The translations under genes were made by a program, and so were the position numbers. From positions 1 through 6,498 of the IMG/VR virus record IMGVR_UViG_2585427736_000018: DNA of 6,498 nt, one strand, 5' to 3'. This DNA is from a virus. Its lineage: Duplodnaviria > Heunggongvirae > Uroviricota > Caudoviricetes. Position 1 is the stretch's first letter. The number at the start of each line of letters is the position of its first letter. This document shows, in pieces, positions 1 to 6,498 of this stretch. A model generated the notes under the pieces. That model was not told where the DNA came from. It saw only the letters and a list, made by a program, of their open reading frames with translations, and searched no databases.

Positions 1-576
1 TTGCATTTGCCAGAGCTTGACGATGTTGCTTGGATGAAGGGTGTATTGATGCTAAATGTAAGGTTTGATTCAGAAAAGGCTTTAGAGGCCATTCTGTACG
101 TCGCCTCTAAAGCACCGATCCCAGATATCTATCATGTCGGAAAAATTCTTTATTATGCTGACAGGTTTCACCTTGAAAGTTTTGGACGCCTCATAACGGG
201 CGATCACTATAACGCTATGAAGGATGGGCCTGTAGCAAGCAACACATACGATATTATAAAAATTGCTCGTGGAGATGGACGTTACATTCCTAATGGTTGT
301 GATGTCGATTCTGTGCGAAAAGCATTTTCTGTATCAGGTATGACGATTGTGCCGAGCCGTGAAGCTGATGAAGACTTTTTTAGTGACTCAGATTTAGAGT
401 GTATTGATAAGTCTATCGCGATGCTTGGAAACATGTCCTTTGAAGCTATCAGAACCATGAGCCATGACGCGGCATGGGAACAGGCAGATCACAATGGTGA
501 GATGTCTTTGGAATCGATAGTTGCACAGCTAAAAAATAGCAAATTAATACTGGATTATCTGAAGAACGGATATTGA
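1..576 (+). CDS. Panacea/DUF4065-domain protein (PanA/SocA/GepA-like putative antitoxin); 5' end may lie upstream of the window
   Basis: Frame 1 is open from base 1 (first codon TTG, first in-window ATG at 34) to stop TGA 574-576. The segment HVGKILYYADRFHLESFGRLITGDHYNAMKDGPVASNTYDII matches the Panacea core pattern as I recall it (K-h-LYYA...G...Y.A...GPV...Y). The C-terminal LECIDKSIAMLGNMSFEAIRTMSHDAAWEQA resembles the family's conserved C-terminal helix. Recognition is from memory, not a search. Confidence 0.6.
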   Translation: MHLPELDDVAWMKGVLMLNVRFDSEKALEAILYVASKAPIPDIYHVGKILYYADRFHLESFGRLITGDHYNAMKDGPVASNTYDIIKIARGDGRYIPNGCDVDSVRKAFSVSGMTIVPSREADEDFFSDSDLECIDKSIAMLGNMSFEAIRTMSHDAAWEQADHNGEMSLESIVAQLKNSKLILDYLKNGY

Positions 577-581
577 TACTT

Positions 582-1043
582 ATGCTGGGTGATTGTTTCC
601 CTCCTGATTTTAAGGCTAATTTTAGTCGTGAAAGAGGTATATCACCCGGTGATGTATTGTATCTTCATTGTGATTTTACGACCCCACCTAAAGTAAAGTA
701 TATGGTGGTTGTTTGCTGTGAACCTCTTTTAGTTCTTCTAATAAATTCAGATATAAATGAATTTATTAAGAGAAACAATGATCTTATGGCTTGTCAGGTC
801 GAAATTAATAGAGAGGACCATGATTTTCTTAAATGGGACTCATTTGTTAATTGCATTGAGGCTCATGCTGCTTTCGATCTTGAAATTATTAAAGAGAAAA
901 TAGCCATCCAATATGGTGACGTGCTAAAAGGTCGCATTACAGATCATTGTATGAGACAAGTTCGATGTGCAGTTGAGATATCTAAAACTATGGTTAAACG
1001 GCATAAAAAACTGATACTCGCTGCTCTTCAACATTATGAATAA
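582..1043 (+). CDS. hypothetical protein, 153 aa; candidate toxin/effector partner of the upstream Panacea-domain gene
   Basis: ATG at 582 lies 5 nt after the upstream stop (in-frame TTG at 573 is the alternative start); stop TAA 1041-1043 sits inside the terminator hairpin. Only a weak GGA Shine-Dalgarno, so translational coupling is likely. Visibly AT-rich. No transmembrane segment or catalytic motif recognised. The toxin role is inferred only from its position beside a Panacea-domain gene. Confidence 0.5.
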   Translation: MLGDCFPPDFKANFSRERGISPGDVLYLHCDFTTPPKVKYMVVVCCEPLLVLLINSDINEFIKRNNDLMACQVEINREDHDFLKWDSFVNCIEAHAAFDLEIIKEKIAIQYGDVLKGRITDHCMRQVRCAVEISKTMVKRHKKLILAALQHYE

Positions 1044-1072
1044 ACCCATCTTTGGATGGGTTTATTCATATT
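1035..1072. terminator. bidirectional intrinsic terminator between convergent transcription units
   Basis: Perfect 16-bp inverted repeat TATGAATAAACCCATC (1035-1050) / GATGGGTTTATTCATA (1055-1070) with 4-nt loop TTTG. GC core CCCATC/GATGGG, with A-rich and T-rich flanks giving a U-rich tail in both orientations. It overlaps the stop of the 582-1043 CDS and lies 7 nt from the stop of the minus-strand 1077-1349 CDS. Confidence 0.7.
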
Positions 1073-1076
1073 CTAT

Positions 1077-1349
1077 TTAAATGAGCCTTTGTTTATGGGT
1101 TCTGACCCTTTCCCACTCAGCACGCCCTTCTTCTCGCCTTTTGTCTATGTATTCCGCAAGATCCTGAATATTGATGCAACGTTTTGCTTTTTGTGATGTG
1201 CCGATGCGATATGTTGGAACGGGCAACTTACAAGCGTTTGCTTTTGCTTCTGCCGTGGCTGGACTCATACCAAAGTACTTTTGGCTAACTGCTGAGAGTT
1301 CAATGTTTGGGGTATTGAATTCAGCCATCAGTAAAAACAAGGTGTTCAT
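1077..1349 (-). CDS. PrtN-family (pyocin-activator-like) small DNA-binding protein; possible excisionase/recombination directionality factor or regulator
   Basis: ATG at 1349-1347 is preceded by GGAG at 6-nt spacing; the ORF track's upstream start at 1376 is a GTG without a better RBS. The N-terminus MNTLFLLMAEF...YIDKRREE resembles PrtN-family proteins found next to integration modules in prophages (recalled similarity). Stop TAA at 1079-1077. Confidence 0.55.
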   Translation of the reverse strand: MNTLFLLMAEFNTPNIELSAVSQKYFGMSPATAEAKANACKLPVPTYRIGTSQKAKRCINIQDLAEYIDKRREEGRAEWERVRTHKQRLI

Positions 1350-1385
1350 AATTTTCTCCATCAAAACCGGCTGCACCCGGGAAAA

Positions 1386-1958
1386 TCATAATTCTGTGCT
1401 GGTGGCAGGAATTAATTTCTGCCAGATAGCGGAAACATATTTTGCCTGATGACGGGCATCAGCCAGGGCGTTGTGCCGTTCGCCATCGAAAGGCATGTCC
1501 ATTTTGGGGTCGAATCCGATGGAACGCCCAAGCGTAACGATCGTGCGTACATCGTGGTCATTCCAGTATGCCCACGGGCAGATTTGTCCTGCTCGCTCAT
1601 AAGCTCCACGTAAAATTACGTTGTCGAAGGTGGCTCCGTTACCCCAGACTTTTAAATATTTCGTATTGTCTGCGTGCCGGTTAATGAAATGATTTAGTTC
1701 TGAGAGAGCATCGCTGATCGACAAAGTATCATCAATACAGATTGCAGCTCGTGCTTCAGGGCTTTGTTTCAACCACCACAGGATGGTATCGCCGTCAGGT
1801 GTAGCTCCTTGCTCCATAGCACTTTCCAGGCTAACAACCGTATAGAATTCTTGTCCGATGTCTCCGGTTTCTGGAGTGAAGAACACCGCGCCAATGGAAA
1901 CGATCGGTGCATCCTTATTTTTCCCCATCGTCTCAAGGTCGATCATTAAGTTGTTCAT
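1386..1958 (-). CDS. phage DEDDh-type 3'-5' exonuclease (DnaQ-like fold)
   Basis: Exo motifs are visible: IDLETMG (D-x-E), WGNGATFDNVIL (Exo II Asp), HNALADARH (H-x4-D). ATG at 1958-1956 is preceded by GGAGGTGA; a GTG at 1961 is the alternative start. The start overlaps the stop of the upstream DUF551 gene. Confidence 0.75.
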   Translation of the reverse strand: MNNLMIDLETMGKNKDAPIVSIGAVFFTPETGDIGQEFYTVVSLESAMEQGATPDGDTILWWLKQSPEARAAICIDDTLSISDALSELNHFINRHADNTKYLKVWGNGATFDNVILRGAYERAGQICPWAYWNDHDVRTIVTLGRSIGFDPKMDMPFDGERHNALADARHQAKYVSAIWQKLIPATSTEL

Positions 1959-2524
1959 CACTTCACCTCCAGCGGCGGTTCCGGTAGCGGCATCCAGTGA
2001 GTTGCTTGCTCAATACCATTACCCGGCTTAATCGTTGCATCTCCGCGCCGAAATGTGCTTCCGGTATAGCGTGCTGAACATATTAGCGGCTCAACCAGAG
2101 AGCTATCGAAATTCACCGAAATAAGCACATTCTGATGCTTCTCAGGCATTCGCTTACTACAGCTTATCCAGCTATCCGGAGTTACCGGATAGTTGCCATT
2201 TACATCGAAGTTTGGCTCTGCGTCCTGAACTAGGAGGATGTAACCATTTTTGGCTGTATCAAGTTCTAACGCCTCGGTGACGGTACCGAAATAGCGATTA
2301 CCTAAATCAGCATCACAAGTGCTTACATCAATGGAAACTTCCATGCCTTCGATTAATTCTGGCAAGTTGTAAGTTTGGCTTACAGGCTCTGCTTCCAGCG
2401 ATACCAGTGCAATTCGTGCCAGTTCTTCCGCTTCTTCTGCTGGCAGTACAACGTTGCTACCCGGTCCGTATGTTTCGCGCCACTGCTGGATTGTCAGCAG
2501 GCGTTCTTTGGTAATAGTGATCAT
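1958..2524 (-). CDS. DUF551-like phage protein
   Basis: ATG at 2524-2522 overlaps the upstream stop in an ATGA arrangement. The C-terminal WMPLPEPP motif is what I recall as the hallmark of DUF551 proteins common in enterobacterial prophage early regions. Acidic protein. Confidence 0.5.
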   Translation of the reverse strand: MITITKERLLTIQQWRETYGPGSNVVLPAEEAEELARIALVSLEAEPVSQTYNLPELIEGMEVSIDVSTCDADLGNRYFGTVTEALELDTAKNGYILLVQDAEPNFDVNGNYPVTPDSWISCSKRMPEKHQNVLISVNFDSSLVEPLICSARYTGSTFRRGDATIKPGNGIEQATHWMPLPEPPLEVK

Positions 2525-3036
2525 GCTGCGTTTCCTTCTTTCTTATTAACAATTACACCGTCATATATTTCATTAAGGTGCCCTCTCAACTCCATGCGCC
2601 TTAATGCAGATAACATGTAATCGCATTCAACCTGCTTATTTCCAGTAAATGGCTTATCGTCAGGATTACCCCAACAGCAATTACCCTTGGGCCACCCATG
2701 TACTTTCCGTACTCTTCCGTTAACAACGTGAAGTAATCCCCAGCCAGCTGGTAAATCCTCAACTGAAATAATTCCCGGCTCACTAATAAAGAATCGCCAG
2801 TCGCCCATTCCAAGAGACGGATTTTTACGGAAACGCTTTTTTCTATCTGCCAACAAGTCAGCACGAGAACACTTCGCCTCTATCAGGCATGATGCTGAAT
2901 TTCTGAATCCCATAGCATCTGGCTGTTCTCCGGTACTGGTTACAGCTATAAAGCGGTCATGAAAACAAACCTTGAACCCGTTGCGCTTAAGGAACTTATA
3001 CGCAATCTGACAGAGTTCGCGGTGTGTTAACGCCAT
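2521..3036 (-). CDS. PD-(D/E)xK nuclease-like phage protein, 171 aa
   Basis: ATG at 3036-3034 is preceded by AAAGGAGAG at 6-nt spacing; the ORF track's longer form starts at a GTG at 3108 and overlaps the upstream small gene, so it is rejected. The motif GEQPDAMGF...(13 aa)...CLIEAKCS fits PD...(D/E)xK spacing. Family assignment is tentative. Confidence 0.5.
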   Translation of the reverse strand: MALTHRELCQIAYKFLKRNGFKVCFHDRFIAVTSTGEQPDAMGFRNSASCLIEAKCSRADLLADRKKRFRKNPSLGMGDWRFFISEPGIISVEDLPAGWGLLHVVNGRVRKVHGWPKGNCCWGNPDDKPFTGNKQVECDYMLSALRRMELRGHLNEIYDGVIVNKKEGNAA

Positions 3037-3037
3037 A

Positions 3038-3226
3038 TCACTCTCCTTTAGTACGCAAGTGGTTTTTCCAGCGGTTTTGCGCCGCGCTGGGCTTTTTGCA
3101 AAAACCACAATCCATCATCCCGTAATGTTTCATTAACCCCACCCGTCGGTTGCTGAGTCTCACCCACTGCCAGACGCCAGGAGCGTTTCTACGAACTAAC
3201 AGAATCTTTGCTTTACGGTTTTTCAT
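3038..3226 (-). CDS. small hypothetical phage protein, 62 aa, basic
   Basis: ATG at 3226-3224 is preceded by AGGAG at about 9-nt spacing. Stop TGA at 3040-3038 is one base upstream of the next gene's ATG (TGAtATG), placing it inside the coupled operon. No recognised domain; contains a single C-x2-C. Confidence 0.45.
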   Translation of the reverse strand: MKNRKAKILLVRRNAPGVWQWVRLSNRRVGLMKHYGMMDCGFCKKPSAAQNRWKNHLRTKGE

Positions 3227-3398
3227 CGTTTTGCTCTCCTGCGTTTCTTTGCTGCTCGTCGTGCCGATGCAATACCGGTATGGCGGCGCTTTGGTGCCGG
3301 GATGATGTTGTCAGCCATCAGGACATGTGGCTTTGCAATTAGCGCAGAAGCCCAAAAACGAGTCGGGTACGGTAACAAGCCGATACATGCCACACGCA

Positions 3399-4046
3399 CT
3401 ACTCACCTCCGTTGATGCGAATGCCAGCGGCACGGGAATCATTCCATCGCTTTACTTCTTCACGAATTACGTCAATGCATTCTTTCGAATCCATTAGGTA
3501 ATCTTCATCAAAAAGCCTTTCCTGTTCGTTTTCTATCGCAACAATGATTGCTTCAACTAACTTTTGTGCCTGAGAACCACTTTCTAACTCTGCAATGCGC
3601 TTCTCTGCGGCTTCCAGCTTCTCGCGCATATCGTCAACGTACTCGACCAGAGATCCGCCAGCAGGAATTTCGCACTCCTCGACCAGTTGGAAGTAGATAT
3701 CAGCTGCGGCCCGTGTGTTGCTATGCCTAGCGTCGCCCATCTCACCTTCACGAAGAGCATCGCGTTCGGCGGTAAGATTGGCTATTTTGCTGTCTTTGCC
3801 TTCCAGCTCAACGCGCAGCTTCCCTACCGTAAGCGCAATATCCTCGTTCTCCTGGTCACGGCGTTTGATGTATTGCTGGTTTCTTTCCCGTTCATCCAAC
3901 AATGCCAGCGCGATATCTGGCGAAAAGTGCTTCATAAAATCGTTAAGCGCATTAATTCGCTGATCGAAAGGCATTACAGGTGCTTCACCAGCAATTTTTG
4001 TTTTTTCAGCGATTTCACGAAGCTTTTGATAATCAATCTTGCTCAC
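3399..4046 (-). CDS. Ead/Ea22-like coiled-coil phage protein
   Basis: GTG start at 4046-4044 is preceded by a strong AAGGAGG at 6-nt spacing and overlaps the upstream stop (GTGA). The N-terminus MSKIDYQKLREIAEK and the Glu/Arg/Leu-rich heptad-like middle resemble lambda Ea22-family early-left proteins (recalled). Confidence 0.5.
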   Translation of the reverse strand: MSKIDYQKLREIAEKTKIAGEAPVMPFDQRINALNDFMKHFSPDIALALLDERERNQQYIKRRDQENEDIALTVGKLRVELEGKDSKIANLTAERDALREGEMGDARHSNTRAAADIYFQLVEECEIPAGGSLVEYVDDMREKLEAAEKRIAELESGSQAQKLVEAIIVAIENEQERLFDEDYLMDSKECIDVIREEVKRWNDSRAAGIRINGGE

Positions 4047-4591
4047 TGGTTGCCTCCTTTGCGAAGCTCTGCAGCGAAATATACAGCTGCGGAAACAATA
4101 GCTGCATGTCGGTATTCACCATCAGAAAATAAAGAATCTCCCTTAAGTGCATTGACGATACTCTGATGATTTTTTGCCAGCATCTCCACGCCCTGCGCCC
4201 GTACTTCAGCCAGAAAAGCATCGGTGGCTGGCATATTTCCTGTTGCCTTCATGGCCTCCAAAATAACCAGAACGCCATCTCGCCCAACCACCTCAGCGAT
4301 AACCTCGGTGTTGTCGCCAACAACATCGCAGAATGCCTGAACTGCCTTACGAGCCAGTTCATTCTCCGCCGCCAGCGCCGAAAACTTCTCGTGTGCCAAC
4401 TTAACAGCCGCATCAGCCTGCTTAATTGACTCAATCGCTCTCTGCTGGTCTTCGGACAGAGCCGAAATCTTGGCCTCCGCTTCAGCAAATTTACGCACCA
4501 GATATTCAGCGTTTGTTTCGTTAACTTTTAAATCTCGTGGTACACATTTCCCGCGAAGAAACCCTTCCATTTCGAAAACATTCATGCGCAT
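4043..4591 (-). CDS. hypothetical phage protein, 182 aa, Ala-rich with predicted coiled-coil N-terminal half; sits where yfdS sits in CPS-53
   Basis: ATG at 4591-4589 is preceded by GGAG at 8-nt spacing; the coding region overlaps the yfdR-like stop by 10 nt (an alternative ATG at 4585 gives an ATGA overlap). No recognised catalytic motif. Confidence 0.5.
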   Translation of the reverse strand: MRMNVFEMEGFLRGKCVPRDLKVNETNAEYLVRKFAEAEAKISALSEDQQRAIESIKQADAAVKLAHEKFSALAAENELARKAVQAFCDVVGDNTEVIAEVVGRDGVLVILEAMKATGNMPATDAFLAEVRAQGVEMLAKNHQSIVNALKGDSLFSDGEYRHAAIVSAAVYFAAELRKGGNQ

Positions 4592-5118
4592 TTGCGTAAC
4601 TCCGATAACTCGTTAAAACGTTCCATAAACATCCCATAGGCATGGCCTGGCGACAGTGGAATCACGTTGAACATCTCTGTTGCCGGGATGCCTTCCAGTA
4701 CAGGCCAGAAAGAGCCATCATCAAGCCCGAGATCGCGGCGTTCGGTTGCCAGCATGATAAGATCGGCATATTTCACGGGCGTGCTCATAACCGGGGGTAA
4801 CCCGTATTTCTCACGGATTACGGCGTCTATTTTTTCTTCCATCCGTTTATAGTCAGGAAGAAGGCGTTTCAGTGGCGCGGGGATGTCCTGACAATACGCT
4901 TCTGTTGCATCATGCATTAACGCTTCGAAAGCAAACTCCTGCGGTACCAGTTGGCTGCAAAGCACCGCATGTTGGGCGACGCTGTAGAAGTGTGAAAGAT
5001 GTCCTGCAAAGCGACAGATATTTGAAAGGGAAACCGCGATATCGTTAATCACGATGTCGTCTTTATCTATCCTGTCATAATAAAAATGCTTCCCGGAAAA
5101 AGTTTTAATAAATGACAT
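4582..5118 (-). CDS. yfdR: HD-domain phosphohydrolase, YfdR-like 5'-deoxynucleotidase
   Basis: ATG at 5118-5116 is preceded by GGAG at 7-nt spacing (the ORF track's longer form starts at a GTG at 5145). The product is 178 aa, the length I recall for E. coli YfdR. HD motifs are visible: AQHAV (His), LMHDATEAY (His-Asp) and a downstream Asp in CQDIP. Confidence 0.7.
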   Translation of the reverse strand: MSFIKTFSGKHFYYDRIDKDDIVINDIAVSLSNICRFAGHLSHFYSVAQHAVLCSQLVPQEFAFEALMHDATEAYCQDIPAPLKRLLPDYKRMEEKIDAVIREKYGLPPVMSTPVKYADLIMLATERRDLGLDDGSFWPVLEGIPATEMFNVIPLSPGHAYGMFMERFNELSELRKCA

Positions 5119-5211
5119 TTTGTTCTCCACGTATATGCGCTGCACCGCGCTGAATTCTGGTAAAAGGAAGCCCTCACCATCCGGTGATTATTGAGTTAAT
5201 TACGTTTCCAT

Positions 5212-5233
5212 AAATGCCCCCGCAGGGGCATTT
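5212..5233 (-). other. intergenic stem-loop between yfdQ-like and yfdR-like genes (possible attenuator or mRNA-stabilising hairpin)
   Basis: Perfect 9-bp inverted repeat AAATGCCCC (5212-5220) / GGGGCATTT (5225-5233) with loop CGCA, 12 nt downstream of the yfdQ-like stop on the minus strand. No clean U-tract follows in either orientation, so it is not called a terminator. Confidence 0.45.
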
Positions 5234-5245
5234 GCAGTAATGAAA

Positions 5246-6070
5246 TCAGGCGGTGAAAGTACCAATAAAGGTTTCGACTTTGCTGTCTTTGAATTTCTCA
5301 ACAAGCAGATCACGAAATTCGTTAGCCATTTCTTCCTGCACCGCTTCCAGCTGAATAATGCGCAGAACCAGTACAGGACGATCGCCAGTGATAATGCTGA
5401 GGCGTAATTTAAATGGACGTTCTTTCAGACCTTCAAACGGAACGCATTTAAATTCAAATGCCACTGGCATAATATCTTTGGTCTTCGCTTCGACAGACTC
5501 CATCAGGGAGCGTTTGCCGCTGAAGTCATTATCTTCAAAATCAGCGGTCTGGTTTGCTTCAATCGTGATTTTACGGACCGCCGCAGCCGCTTTTGTTGCC
5601 TGAATGGTGTCACCATTAGCATCAAAGCCCACAAGGTAGTCGGCCCAGTCTTCAATCCATTCTGCCAGTGATTTCTGGGAGTTACGCTCGCCATTAACAG
5701 ACAACAGAGCAGAGAACGGTGCTGTCTTTTTCAGTTTGAGAGTGGCGGTGTTATCTGCGTGACCTGGTTCATCAATAGTACCCAGGTTAAGCACACTGAC
5801 GGCACGCATATTATCAGCATCGATAAAGCAGCGGGTGCCTTCATCTGCAAGATCTTTAGAATAACGGGTAAAGTCATCGATGCTGGCAGTGGAAAGCGCA
5901 CCACGGAAACGGAAGCGATTTAAATTAAATTTTTCCAGATCATGAATGCGGAAATTCTCAGGCAATGCCACAGCATCGGCACCAATCTTACTGATAATTT
6001 CATTAACACCCTGAGCAGAAATAAGGGCATGGATTTGATTAATTGCGGTTGCGTCTAAGTTCTGAGACAT
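5246..6070 (-). CDS. yfdQ: DUF2303-family phage protein, YfdQ-like
   Basis: ATG at 6070-6068 is preceded by GAGGA at 6-nt spacing. The product is 274 aa, the length I recall for E. coli CPS-53 YfdQ, and it sits immediately upstream of the yfdR-like gene as in CPS-53. Confidence 0.65.
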
Positions 6071-6135
6071 AATAAGTCCTCACTATATAAAGATATTCAG
6101 TGATGAGATAAATAATCAGTTAATTAAAAACGATA

Positions 6136-6498
6136 TTAACGACCTGCTGCGCGGAGTTTTCCGTCAGGTTCACCGGCAAGAGTCAGTAACTGTCCCTGGT
6201 CTTCCTGCAGAATAGTCAGGCGACCACCGCGATTGACATACATCGGTGTTTCGGTGGTGTCTTCTTCGGAAATATTCCCGCGGTTAGTCGGGCGATCATA
6301 TGAGAGTTTGTGTTTGATTTTCACACGGTTCTCATCAAATGGTTCGATTTCCAGGTTGAGTGAGACCTTACCTTTGGTTTTCGTGTTCATCACACCGGAA
6401 GCGACTTCACTGAGAACTGCGCCGATTTTGGTTTCAAATACGCCGCCGTCCAGCTCCCCGATAAATGCCTGCACATCAGTACTGCGTTCGCTAGCCAT
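6136..6498 (-). CDS. hypothetical phage protein in the yfdP position; start codon coincides with the window edge
   Basis: ATG at 6498-6496 is the last three bases of the window, so the RBS cannot be seen and the ORF could extend further. Stop TAA at 6138-6136. The 120-aa product and its position upstream of yfdQ are consistent with a YfdP-like gene (synteny only). Confidence 0.45.
   Translation of the reverse strand: MASERSTDVQAFIGELDGGVFETKIGAVLSEVASGVMNTKTKGKVSLNLEIEPFDENRVKIKHKLSYDRPTNRGNISEEDTTETPMYVNRGGRLTILQEDQGQLLTLAGEPDGKLRAAGR

Follow-up and report, generated by a model that had tools for sequence, protein, structure and literature searches.

Previous studies of the CPS-53 (KpLE1) prophage of Escherichia coli K-12 described a gene cluster with the order yfdQ-yfdR-yfdS-yfdT and mention neither a PD-(D/E)xK nuclease gene nor an exonuclease gene in it (PMC4776307). 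YfdR is reported to bind DnaA, and overexpressed YfdQ and YfdR, together with YfdS or YfdT, inhibit the initiation of host replication; the DUF551 protein YfdS is redundant with YfdT in this effect, and cells become more sensitive to H2O2 when yfdS is lost (PMC4776307). Here we describe three adjacent minus-strand genes at positions 1386–3036 of a 6,498-nt stretch of phage DNA (positions 1 to 6,498 of the IMG/VR record IMGVR_UViG_2585427736_000018; this whole stretch is referred to as the window). In the order of transcription they encode a putative PD-(D/E)xK nuclease of 171 residues, a DUF551 protein of 188 residues and a predicted DEDDh exonuclease of 190 residues, whose gene is called exo below. 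The window shares its operon type with the K-12 cluster, including YfdQ (DUF2303), YfdR (HD domain) and a YfdS-like DUF551 protein, but the N-terminal modules of this last protein differ from those of the CPS-53 counterpart. The niche of the three genes, between recombination or replication-control genes and xis, is also that of the exo-xis region of phage lambda with Ea22, and both regions are mosaic and modular. The gene content of the lambda region is, however, unlike that of the window, and a pro-lysogenic phenotype is known for lambda's Ea22. Our main conclusion is that the three genes are independently shuffled accessory genes and not a conserved module or complex; we assign a probability of about 0.72 to this reading, taken jointly for the nature of the region, the three accessory genes and their proposed activities.

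The PD-(D/E)xK gene occupies positions 2521–3036 (minus strand, ATG start at 3036), the DUF551 gene positions 1958–2524 (minus strand; Pfam PF04448) and exo positions 1386–1958 (minus strand; Pfam PF16473; 190 residues counted from the ATG at 1958). All three are part of a long run of minus-strand genes across the window. The ATG of the DUF551 gene (2524–2522) overlaps the TGA of the PD-(D/E)xK gene (2523–2521) as ATGA, and the ATG of exo (1958–1956) and the TGA of the DUF551 gene (1960–1958) have one base in common (TGATG). The original prediction, made from the letters of this DNA, had called three overlapping genes here with starts at 2524 and 1958 that overlap the preceding stops, and both the genes and the overlaps are real. 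For the PD-(D/E)xK gene we preferred the ATG at 3036 over a GTG at 3108, because it is preceded by AAGGAG (6–11 nt upstream) and because the cluster of its product at 90% identity, with 1,363 member sequences, has a representative of 171 residues. We rejected the GTG start, since this Shine-Dalgarno sequence and the N-termini of homologues point to the ATG. The three exact protein sequences are all public already, under the names '3'-5' exonuclease', 'DUF551 domain-containing protein' and 'hypothetical protein'.

The composition of related loci bears on whether the three genes belong together. We collected 80 IMG/VR loci with an exo gene at least 97% identical to that of the window. The excisionase-like gene xis follows exo directly in 80 of 80 loci, and a DUF551 gene directly precedes it in 48. 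The PD-(D/E)xK gene is present in just 4 of the 80, and in at least 25 exo stands without either partner. The commonest arrangement is yfdQ > yfdR > PHROG 614 > exo > xis, in which neither partner is present. A reciprocal sample comprised 80 loci whose PD-(D/E)xK gene matches that of the window at 98% identity or more. An exonuclease of the exo family was found within 5 kb of this gene in 6 of them. In the 69 of these loci where the sequence continues downstream for 2.5 kb or more, a DUF551 domain is encoded downstream in 48, exo in 2 and the window's own DUF551 allele in a single one. At 80 PD-(D/E)xK loci taken from different species exo was never found, and the 139 neighbour proteins of the 37 non-acidobacterial loci include no Rv2179c-like protein. 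Some part of the 1.65-kb block is carried by 1,845 of 5,426 complete E. coli genomes, at least 80% of it by 8. Co-occurrence of the kind expected from a conserved three-gene module was thus seen neither in related nor in distant genomes. The original prediction had treated the three genes as one block; instead they assort independently, among near-identical prophages as well as across species.

From these counts, exo is a backbone gene of CPS-53-type prophages and always lies beside xis. In other lambdoid and Stx phages the PD-(D/E)xK gene is mostly accompanied by two small open reading frames, orf58 and orf62. In the window the exo backbone and the PD-(D/E)xK gene meet at one recombinant join, probably by way of shared DUF551 modules, and phage mosaicism accounts for the nuclease-rich block.

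Two nucleases of different folds joined by stop/start overlaps could also be read as a functional module for phage recombination, in which the endonuclease cuts, the exonuclease resects, the DUF551 protein serves as an adaptor between them and translational coupling fixes the stoichiometry. Pfam and PHROG searches of the 6.5-kb window revealed no recombination genes of the Red or RecET type, which would fit such a role. The counts given above (4/80, 6/80 and 0/80 loci) put co-occurrence at background level, however, and together with the 0 of 139 Rv2179c-like neighbours and the partnerless exo in at least 25 of 80 loci they largely refute a three-part module. Nor are the overlaps specific to these genes. 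At the seven successive junctions from yfdR to exo the gaps are -10, -4, -1, -4, +1, -4 and -1 nt, so that close packing characterises the operon as a whole. The original prediction had taken the overlaps as a sign of stoichiometric co-expression of the three genes as a unit, which finds no support in an operon where they run throughout. The role in recombination or in countering host defences that the original prediction suggested for such early-left blocks is a generality. We consider the module highly improbable, and the preferred reading remains that of independently shuffled genes.

The surrounding sequence is consistent in character with this reading. E. coli prophages as well as Shiga toxin (Stx)-converting and other lambdoid phages match the window piecewise at 93–98% identity. 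The three genes are spanned without interruption by only one phage record, Lys8385Vzw (MT225100). This phage has, in order, int, a plus-strand Panacea pair, a xis-like gene, the exonuclease gene, the DUF551 gene and the 171-residue gene, followed after further genes by an HD hydrolase, a YfdQ homologue and a LexA-like repressor. The YfdQ homologue is noted in this record as a protein of the CPS-53 (KpLE1) prophage. The window derives from an E. coli lambdoid prophage of the CPS-53/Lys8385Vzw type; within its early-left operon the block forms the end that is distal to the promoter and proximal to xis, and the region is an ordinary mosaic accessory region. A promoter and terminator scan found neither a promoter-like nor a minus-strand terminator-like site inside 1386–3036, and a scan for Rfam families and repeats in and around the three-gene block found nothing.

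The product of the PD-(D/E)xK gene has no match in Pfam, NCBIfam or PADLOC, and its PHROGs are annotated as of unknown function. Single-sequence searches of the PDB with this protein and with the DUF551 protein gave chance matches only. An AlphaFold2 model based on a 30-sequence alignment reached a predicted local distance difference test (pLDDT) score of 80.6 and a predicted template modelling (pTM) score of 0.74. Its topology of helix, three strands, helix and strand is the canonical αβββαβ core of the PD-(D/E)xK superfamily. In the model Asp40 lies at the start of strand 2 and Glu53-x-Lys55 at the end of strand 3, i.e. the acidic strand-2 residue and the strand-3 (D/E)-x-K motif that characterize the superfamily are both present. 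The putative active site comprises Glu7 (helix 1), Glu37, Asp40 (strand 2) and Glu53-x-Lys55 (strand 3); Arg58, Asp60, Asp64, Lys67, Arg81, Glu137, Arg146 and Arg147 are further conserved residues. In close homologues Glu37, Asp40, Glu53, Lys55, Arg58, Asp60, Asp64, Lys67, Arg70, Arg81, Glu137, Arg146 and Arg147 are invariant. Among 42 sequences of 34–57% identity Asp40, Asp60, Gly78, Arg81 and Glu137 are invariant, and Glu37, Pro39, Glu53 and Lys55 are conserved to at least 90%. The segments GMGDWRF and KPF..NKQ.E...SALRR are conserved specifically in this family.

A profile of the family matches the structure 3DNX (SPO1766) by sequence with E = 3.5e-5, and the Asp and ExK motifs are aligned. 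HHalign supports remote homology to the MmcB-like proteins with a probability of 95.8%, and the window protein and 3DNX are 26% identical. We take 3DNX to be the structural representative of the Pfam MmcB-like family (formerly DUF1052). A Foldseek search of viral models returned annotated MmcB-like repair proteins. The family profile also aligns with the archaeal Holliday junction resolvase Hjc (PF01870; 1HH1, 1OB8) over the D/ExK region; Hjc is a minimal PD-(D/E)xK core with E...D...E-x-K, as in the window protein. Individually, 25 of the 42 family members gave weak matches to Hjc and 10 of the 42 weak matches to MmcB-like proteins (best E = 2.9e-4). The original prediction had based its tentative PD-(D/E)xK call on one PD...ExK spacing. 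The call holds by the AlphaFold2 fold, the profile match to 3DNX and HHalign, and neither of the findings named in advance as refuting it, a missing fold or unconserved acidic residues, was observed.

The window protein does not reach the gathering threshold of PF06319 (MmcB-like), has no Pfam match at E <= 0.01 and gives no significant sequence match to PF01870. MmcB-like nucleases (PF06319; 3DNX, SPO1766) are its remote homologues, and the window protein has conserved segments of its own. Because the Pfam threshold is not reached, we did not place it in PF06319; the sequence evidence describes it best as a PD-(D/E)xK nuclease whose family, so far without a name, is a sister of the MmcB-like nucleases. 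MmcB itself is described as an SOS-induced PD-(D/E)XK endonuclease to which Caulobacter owes protection against mitomycin C and cisplatin; its role is known from genetics only, and an action in crosslink repair has been hypothesised (PMC9578287). By its relationship to MmcB and Hjc, the unusually high conservation of the family across phyla and the syntenic gene in Acidobacteria, the 171-residue protein is most likely a metal-dependent endonuclease that would act on DNA structure or damage and not on sequence. Two other assignments were rejected. A restriction enzyme is disfavoured, since Pfam and PHROG searches of the window found no cognate methyltransferase gene next to the nuclease, as a type II restriction-modification system would have, and since the sequence conservation of the family would be unusually high for such an enzyme. 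A Cas4/RecB-like nuclease was rejected because a Cys cluster is not conserved past close homologues.

The family is large. A word-indexed search returned 338 relatives of the 171-residue protein, and an exhaustive profile search yielded 3,282 clusters (50% identity), of which 2,420 have E <= 1e-10. Members are carried by prophages in Proteobacteria, Bacteroidota and Bacillota as well as by the chromosomes of Acidobacteria, and those from E. coli and Bacteroidota are about 45% identical. Of the approximately 43 acidobacterial-clade loci that we fetched, 30-odd have the homologue (35–38% identity) as a chromosomal gene in a syntenic position; the family is therefore not confined to phages. In these loci (L113–L161, e.g. 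L132, L137 and L155) the gene lies downstream of a gene for a CHAD/HD (Ppx-GppA-like) protein, and dnaX and recR are found nearby on the opposite strand. In 8 of the 37 loci from non-acidobacterial species (L084, L089, L091, L095, L096, L105, L112 and L135) a DNA methyltransferase gene lies no more than two genes away from the homologue, on one side or the other. The methyltransferases are of differing classes (N6/N4, Dam-type and C5). In one of these loci, L095, a Dam-like gene, a C5 gene and the PD-(D/E)xK gene overlap head to tail. A literature search found no published work on this phage nuclease family.

These distributions leave room for the idea that the family has a dedicated, conserved role in DNA transactions that is distinct from those of MmcB and Hjc, which we regard as doubtful though worth considering. 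One option for such a role is a link to DNA modification, from the recurrent neighbouring methyltransferases. Another is the processing of replication or repair intermediates, from the acidobacterial neighbourhood with dnaX and recR.

The product of exo matches PF16473 (Rv2179c-like) over profile positions 1–177 of 177 (E = 9e-76; 253.9 bits against a cutoff of 27) and belongs to PHROG 255 'exonuclease'. The sole solved relative detectable by sequence is a 227-residue 'Exodeoxyribonuclease' (8KEL and 8KEN, E = 1e-10); in sequence and mutant pair it matches T4 DexA and DexA S87A/D90A (PMC12153337). The exo product is 31% identical to the T4 dexA product (NC_000866). Its residues Asp7, Glu9, Asp112, His162 and Asp167 align with Asp7, Glu9, Asp119, His186 and Asp191 of DexA, so that the DEDDh pentad is complete. 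The alignment thus identifies the 190-residue protein as a DEDDh 3'-5' exonuclease of the DexA/Rv2179c family. The original prediction of a DEDDh, DnaQ-like exonuclease is borne out by the full-length profile match and the five catalytic residues. Because the DEDDh site is intact and the protein is homologous to an enzyme of known activity, it is predicted to remove nucleotides from 3' ends. It differs from T4 DexA in length (190 against 227 residues), as insertions of DexA are missing, and its context in a temperate-phage early operon next to xis is unlike that of T4 DexA and of the E. coli homologue EcD.

EcD ('HREX') is reported to cut T4 DNA that contains 5-hydroxymethylcytosine (5hmC), not to cut unmodified DNA and to protect cells from T4 (PMC12153337). 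Residues Ser87 and Asp90 of DexA, where EcD has Ala, are said to permit a tetramer that is active on unmodified DNA, and Asp169 of DexA has been proposed to read 5hmC (PMC12153337). We rebuilt the EcD sequence from the cloning primers given in PMC12153337. The resulting IMG/VR protein has 189 residues, starts with MIDTETLGNG and has Ala at position 78, as that paper states; at its 3' end the gene is one base off the reverse primer. By these features it is probably EcD. The exo product is 37% identical to it over 183 residues. Ser80 and Asp83 of exo, the equivalents of DexA Ser87 and Asp90, are both retained, whereas EcD lacks them. Ser146 aligns with DexA Asp169, and Trp132, the equivalent of DexA Trp152, is conserved. 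Of the EcD-like signature, i.e. loss of the Asp90 equivalent with retention of the Trp and the Asp for which 5hmC recognition is proposed, exo keeps Trp132 only; HREX-type specificity of the window enzyme is possible on this comparison. The reconstructed EcD gene was found on viral (prophage) contigs of IMG/VR (L244, L249, L259, L260, L262 and L265). The reported anti-T4 defence gene thus appears to be phage-borne; a text search found the word 'prophage' absent from the main text of PMC12153337. A second exonuclease allele of this family, about 60% identical, lies in some phages upstream of Ead/Ea22 instead of beside xis (L039, L057 and L080, where it precedes the PD-(D/E)xK gene; L043) and has Thr instead of Asp at the position equivalent to DexA Asp90.

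The relationship to EcD raises a role in prophage defence or superinfection exclusion. The exonuclease would then degrade hydroxymethylcytosine-modified DNA of T-even phages as EcD does (PMC12153337), and the PD-(D/E)xK protein would act like a restriction enzyme. The occurrence of reconstructed EcD on viral contigs, the conserved catalytic residues and Trp132 of exo and the methyltransferases beside PD-(D/E)xK homologues in 8 of 37 loci from other species are consistent with this idea. The residues that set exo apart from EcD point the other way: it keeps Ser and Asp where EcD has Ala, and it has Ser146 at the position of Asp169, the proposed reader of 5hmC. A generic DEDDh model (E = 1.6e-5) was the sole PADLOC model matched. 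The genes lie deep in the early-left operon with no internal promoter-like site, which makes expression in a repressed lysogen doubtful. The window contains no methyltransferase, and the PD-(D/E)xK family, at about 45% identity between E. coli and Bacteroidota, is far more conserved than restriction enzymes usually are. We therefore regard a defence function as unlikely.

In a role in host takeover or anti-defence, exo would salvage DNA or RNA of the host, or trim 3' ends that host defences make use of, and the PD-(D/E)xK protein would attack DNA structures of the host. T4 DexA is documented in the scavenging of host DNA (PMC12153337), the placement of the genes fits early expression, and RNA substrates are conceivable, as the Pfam family is named after the exoribonuclease Rv2179c. 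The neighbouring YfdR, moreover, is reported to bind DnaA, with inhibition of replication initiation together with YfdQ and YfdS/YfdT (PMC4776307). No similarity to known anti-defence proteins was found, however, and the syntenic chromosomal homologues in Acidobacteria argue for a housekeeping-type DNA transaction rather than an attack on the host. Such a role is very unlikely in our view.

The DUF551 call of the original prediction is confirmed by a match to PF04448 of 72.4 bits against a cutoff of 22, which covers residues 118–184 and 67 of the 68 profile positions. The 188-residue protein consists of an N-terminal helical module (approximately residues 1–46), a middle module (approximately residues 47–111) and the C-terminal DUF551 domain (residues 118–184). 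In an alignment of homologues (A5) the short helical N-terminal module ends in ELARIALASLEA. Other alleles of the gene show insertions, swaps and fusions to Ead/Ea22, and megablast breakpoints in other phages, at window positions of approximately 2386 and 2145, coincide with the module boundaries. DUF551 has been described as a portable C-terminal domain of Ea22 variants of Stx phages (PMC10834534). A conserved N-terminal module of 45–50 residues starts at the identical ATGA overlap in 45 of the 69 loci and may serve as a homology patch for shuffling. An AlphaFold2 model of the DUF551 protein was unusable (pLDDT 35.8), with 20 close and mutually similar homologues aligned. In the GenBank record of Lys8385Vzw the DUF551 gene Lys8385Vzw_33 (L001, 5573–6139) is mislabelled 'valyl-tRNA synthetase'.

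Based on these comparisons we propose the following explanation for the locus. Three accessory genes would have been acquired independently at the xis-proximal end of the early-left operon. They would be co-transcribed early after induction or infection, a timing suggested by the gene geometry. Co-transcription and probable translational coupling are proposed because the whole operon is packed in this way. The 171-residue protein would be a Mg2+-dependent PD-(D/E)xK DNA endonuclease that cuts branched or damaged DNA, with MmcB-like repair nucleases and Hjc-type junction resolvases as its closest characterised relatives. The DUF551 protein would be a modular protein ending in its DUF551 domain. 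The exonuclease would trim the 3' ends of nucleic acids. The gene structure, the folds, the catalytic residues and the independent assortment are results of the analysis, and the substrates, the timing of expression and the coupling are inferred.

Several points weigh against this explanation. The three genes are probably translationally coupled like their neighbours, as read from the geometry of the junctions only. A DUF551 gene lies downstream of the PD-(D/E)xK gene in approximately 70% of the E. coli phage loci, often with the identical ATGA (45/69), and a looser two-gene association of PD-(D/E)xK and DUF551 may thus exist. The substrate preference suggested for the PD-(D/E)xK protein is an analogy with remote relatives, with 26% identity to 3DNX, which is itself uncharacterised. 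With regard to the two-gene association, this region is very rich in DUF551 genes, the DUF551 domains encoded downstream share just 37–88% identity with that of the window, and the association vanishes across species, where DUF551 was found in 3 of 80 loci.

The remaining genes of the window frame the block on both sides. Downstream of exo, xis (1077–1376, minus strand) encodes an excisionase-like protein of the PrtN/AlpA type (PF11112, E = 3.9e-23; PHROG 1300 'excisionase'). Upstream, orf62 (3038–3226, minus strand, 62 residues) ends 1 nt before the start of the PD-(D/E)xK gene. It is followed upstream by orf58 (3223–3399, minus strand, 58 residues), which lies downstream of an Ead/Ea22-like gene (3399–4046, minus strand). 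The PHROG 614 gene (4043–4591, minus strand), yfdR (4582–5118, minus strand, HD domain) and yfdQ (5246–6070, minus strand, DUF2303) complete the series; these last four genes were assigned by Pfam/PHROG matches. By analogy with their K-12 homologues, the YfdR and YfdQ proteins of this upstream part of the operon (4582–6070, minus strand) may target host replication. An orf62-like reading frame abuts the PD-(D/E)xK gene in 39 of the 80 near-identical loci and is its commonest upstream neighbour. Some loci carry two or three orf62 paralogues. The orf62 product is strongly basic and includes the motif DCGFC, and orf58 and orf62 are packed through ATGA and 1-nt junctions.

On the plus strand, a gene with a Panacea/SocA-antitoxin domain (1–576; PF13274, E = 5e-20) overlaps a gene for a 156-residue protein with no family match (573–1043). 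The G+C content of this pair is 0.35–0.39 compared with approximately 0.47 elsewhere in the window. In Lys8385Vzw the pair is flanked by int and xis. It resembles a moron of the toxin-antitoxin or defence type inserted at the int-xis junction. Between the converging Panacea pair and the xis end of the early-left operon, positions 1035–1070 form a perfect inverted repeat (16 bp, loop of 4 nt), a probable bidirectional terminator.

Two of the three genes are already correctly annotated in public records. What is new is the fold and clade assignment of the 171-residue protein, which is missing from Pfam, NCBIfam, PHROGs and PADLOC. A protein that is very common in Stx-converting and other lambdoid prophages and is annotated as 'hypothetical' can now be labelled as a putative PD-(D/E)xK nuclease in the neighbourhood of MmcB and Hjc, and its putative active site (Asp40, Glu53 and Lys55) is defined for mutagenesis. 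The locus also calls for caution, as gene overlap and adjacency in phage early regions are no proof of a functional module; the same three genes occur in many other combinations. Finally, as a distant relative (37% identity) of an anti-T4 nuclease reported recently, exo suggests the hypothesis that prophages of pathogenic E. coli may exclude phages with modified DNA.

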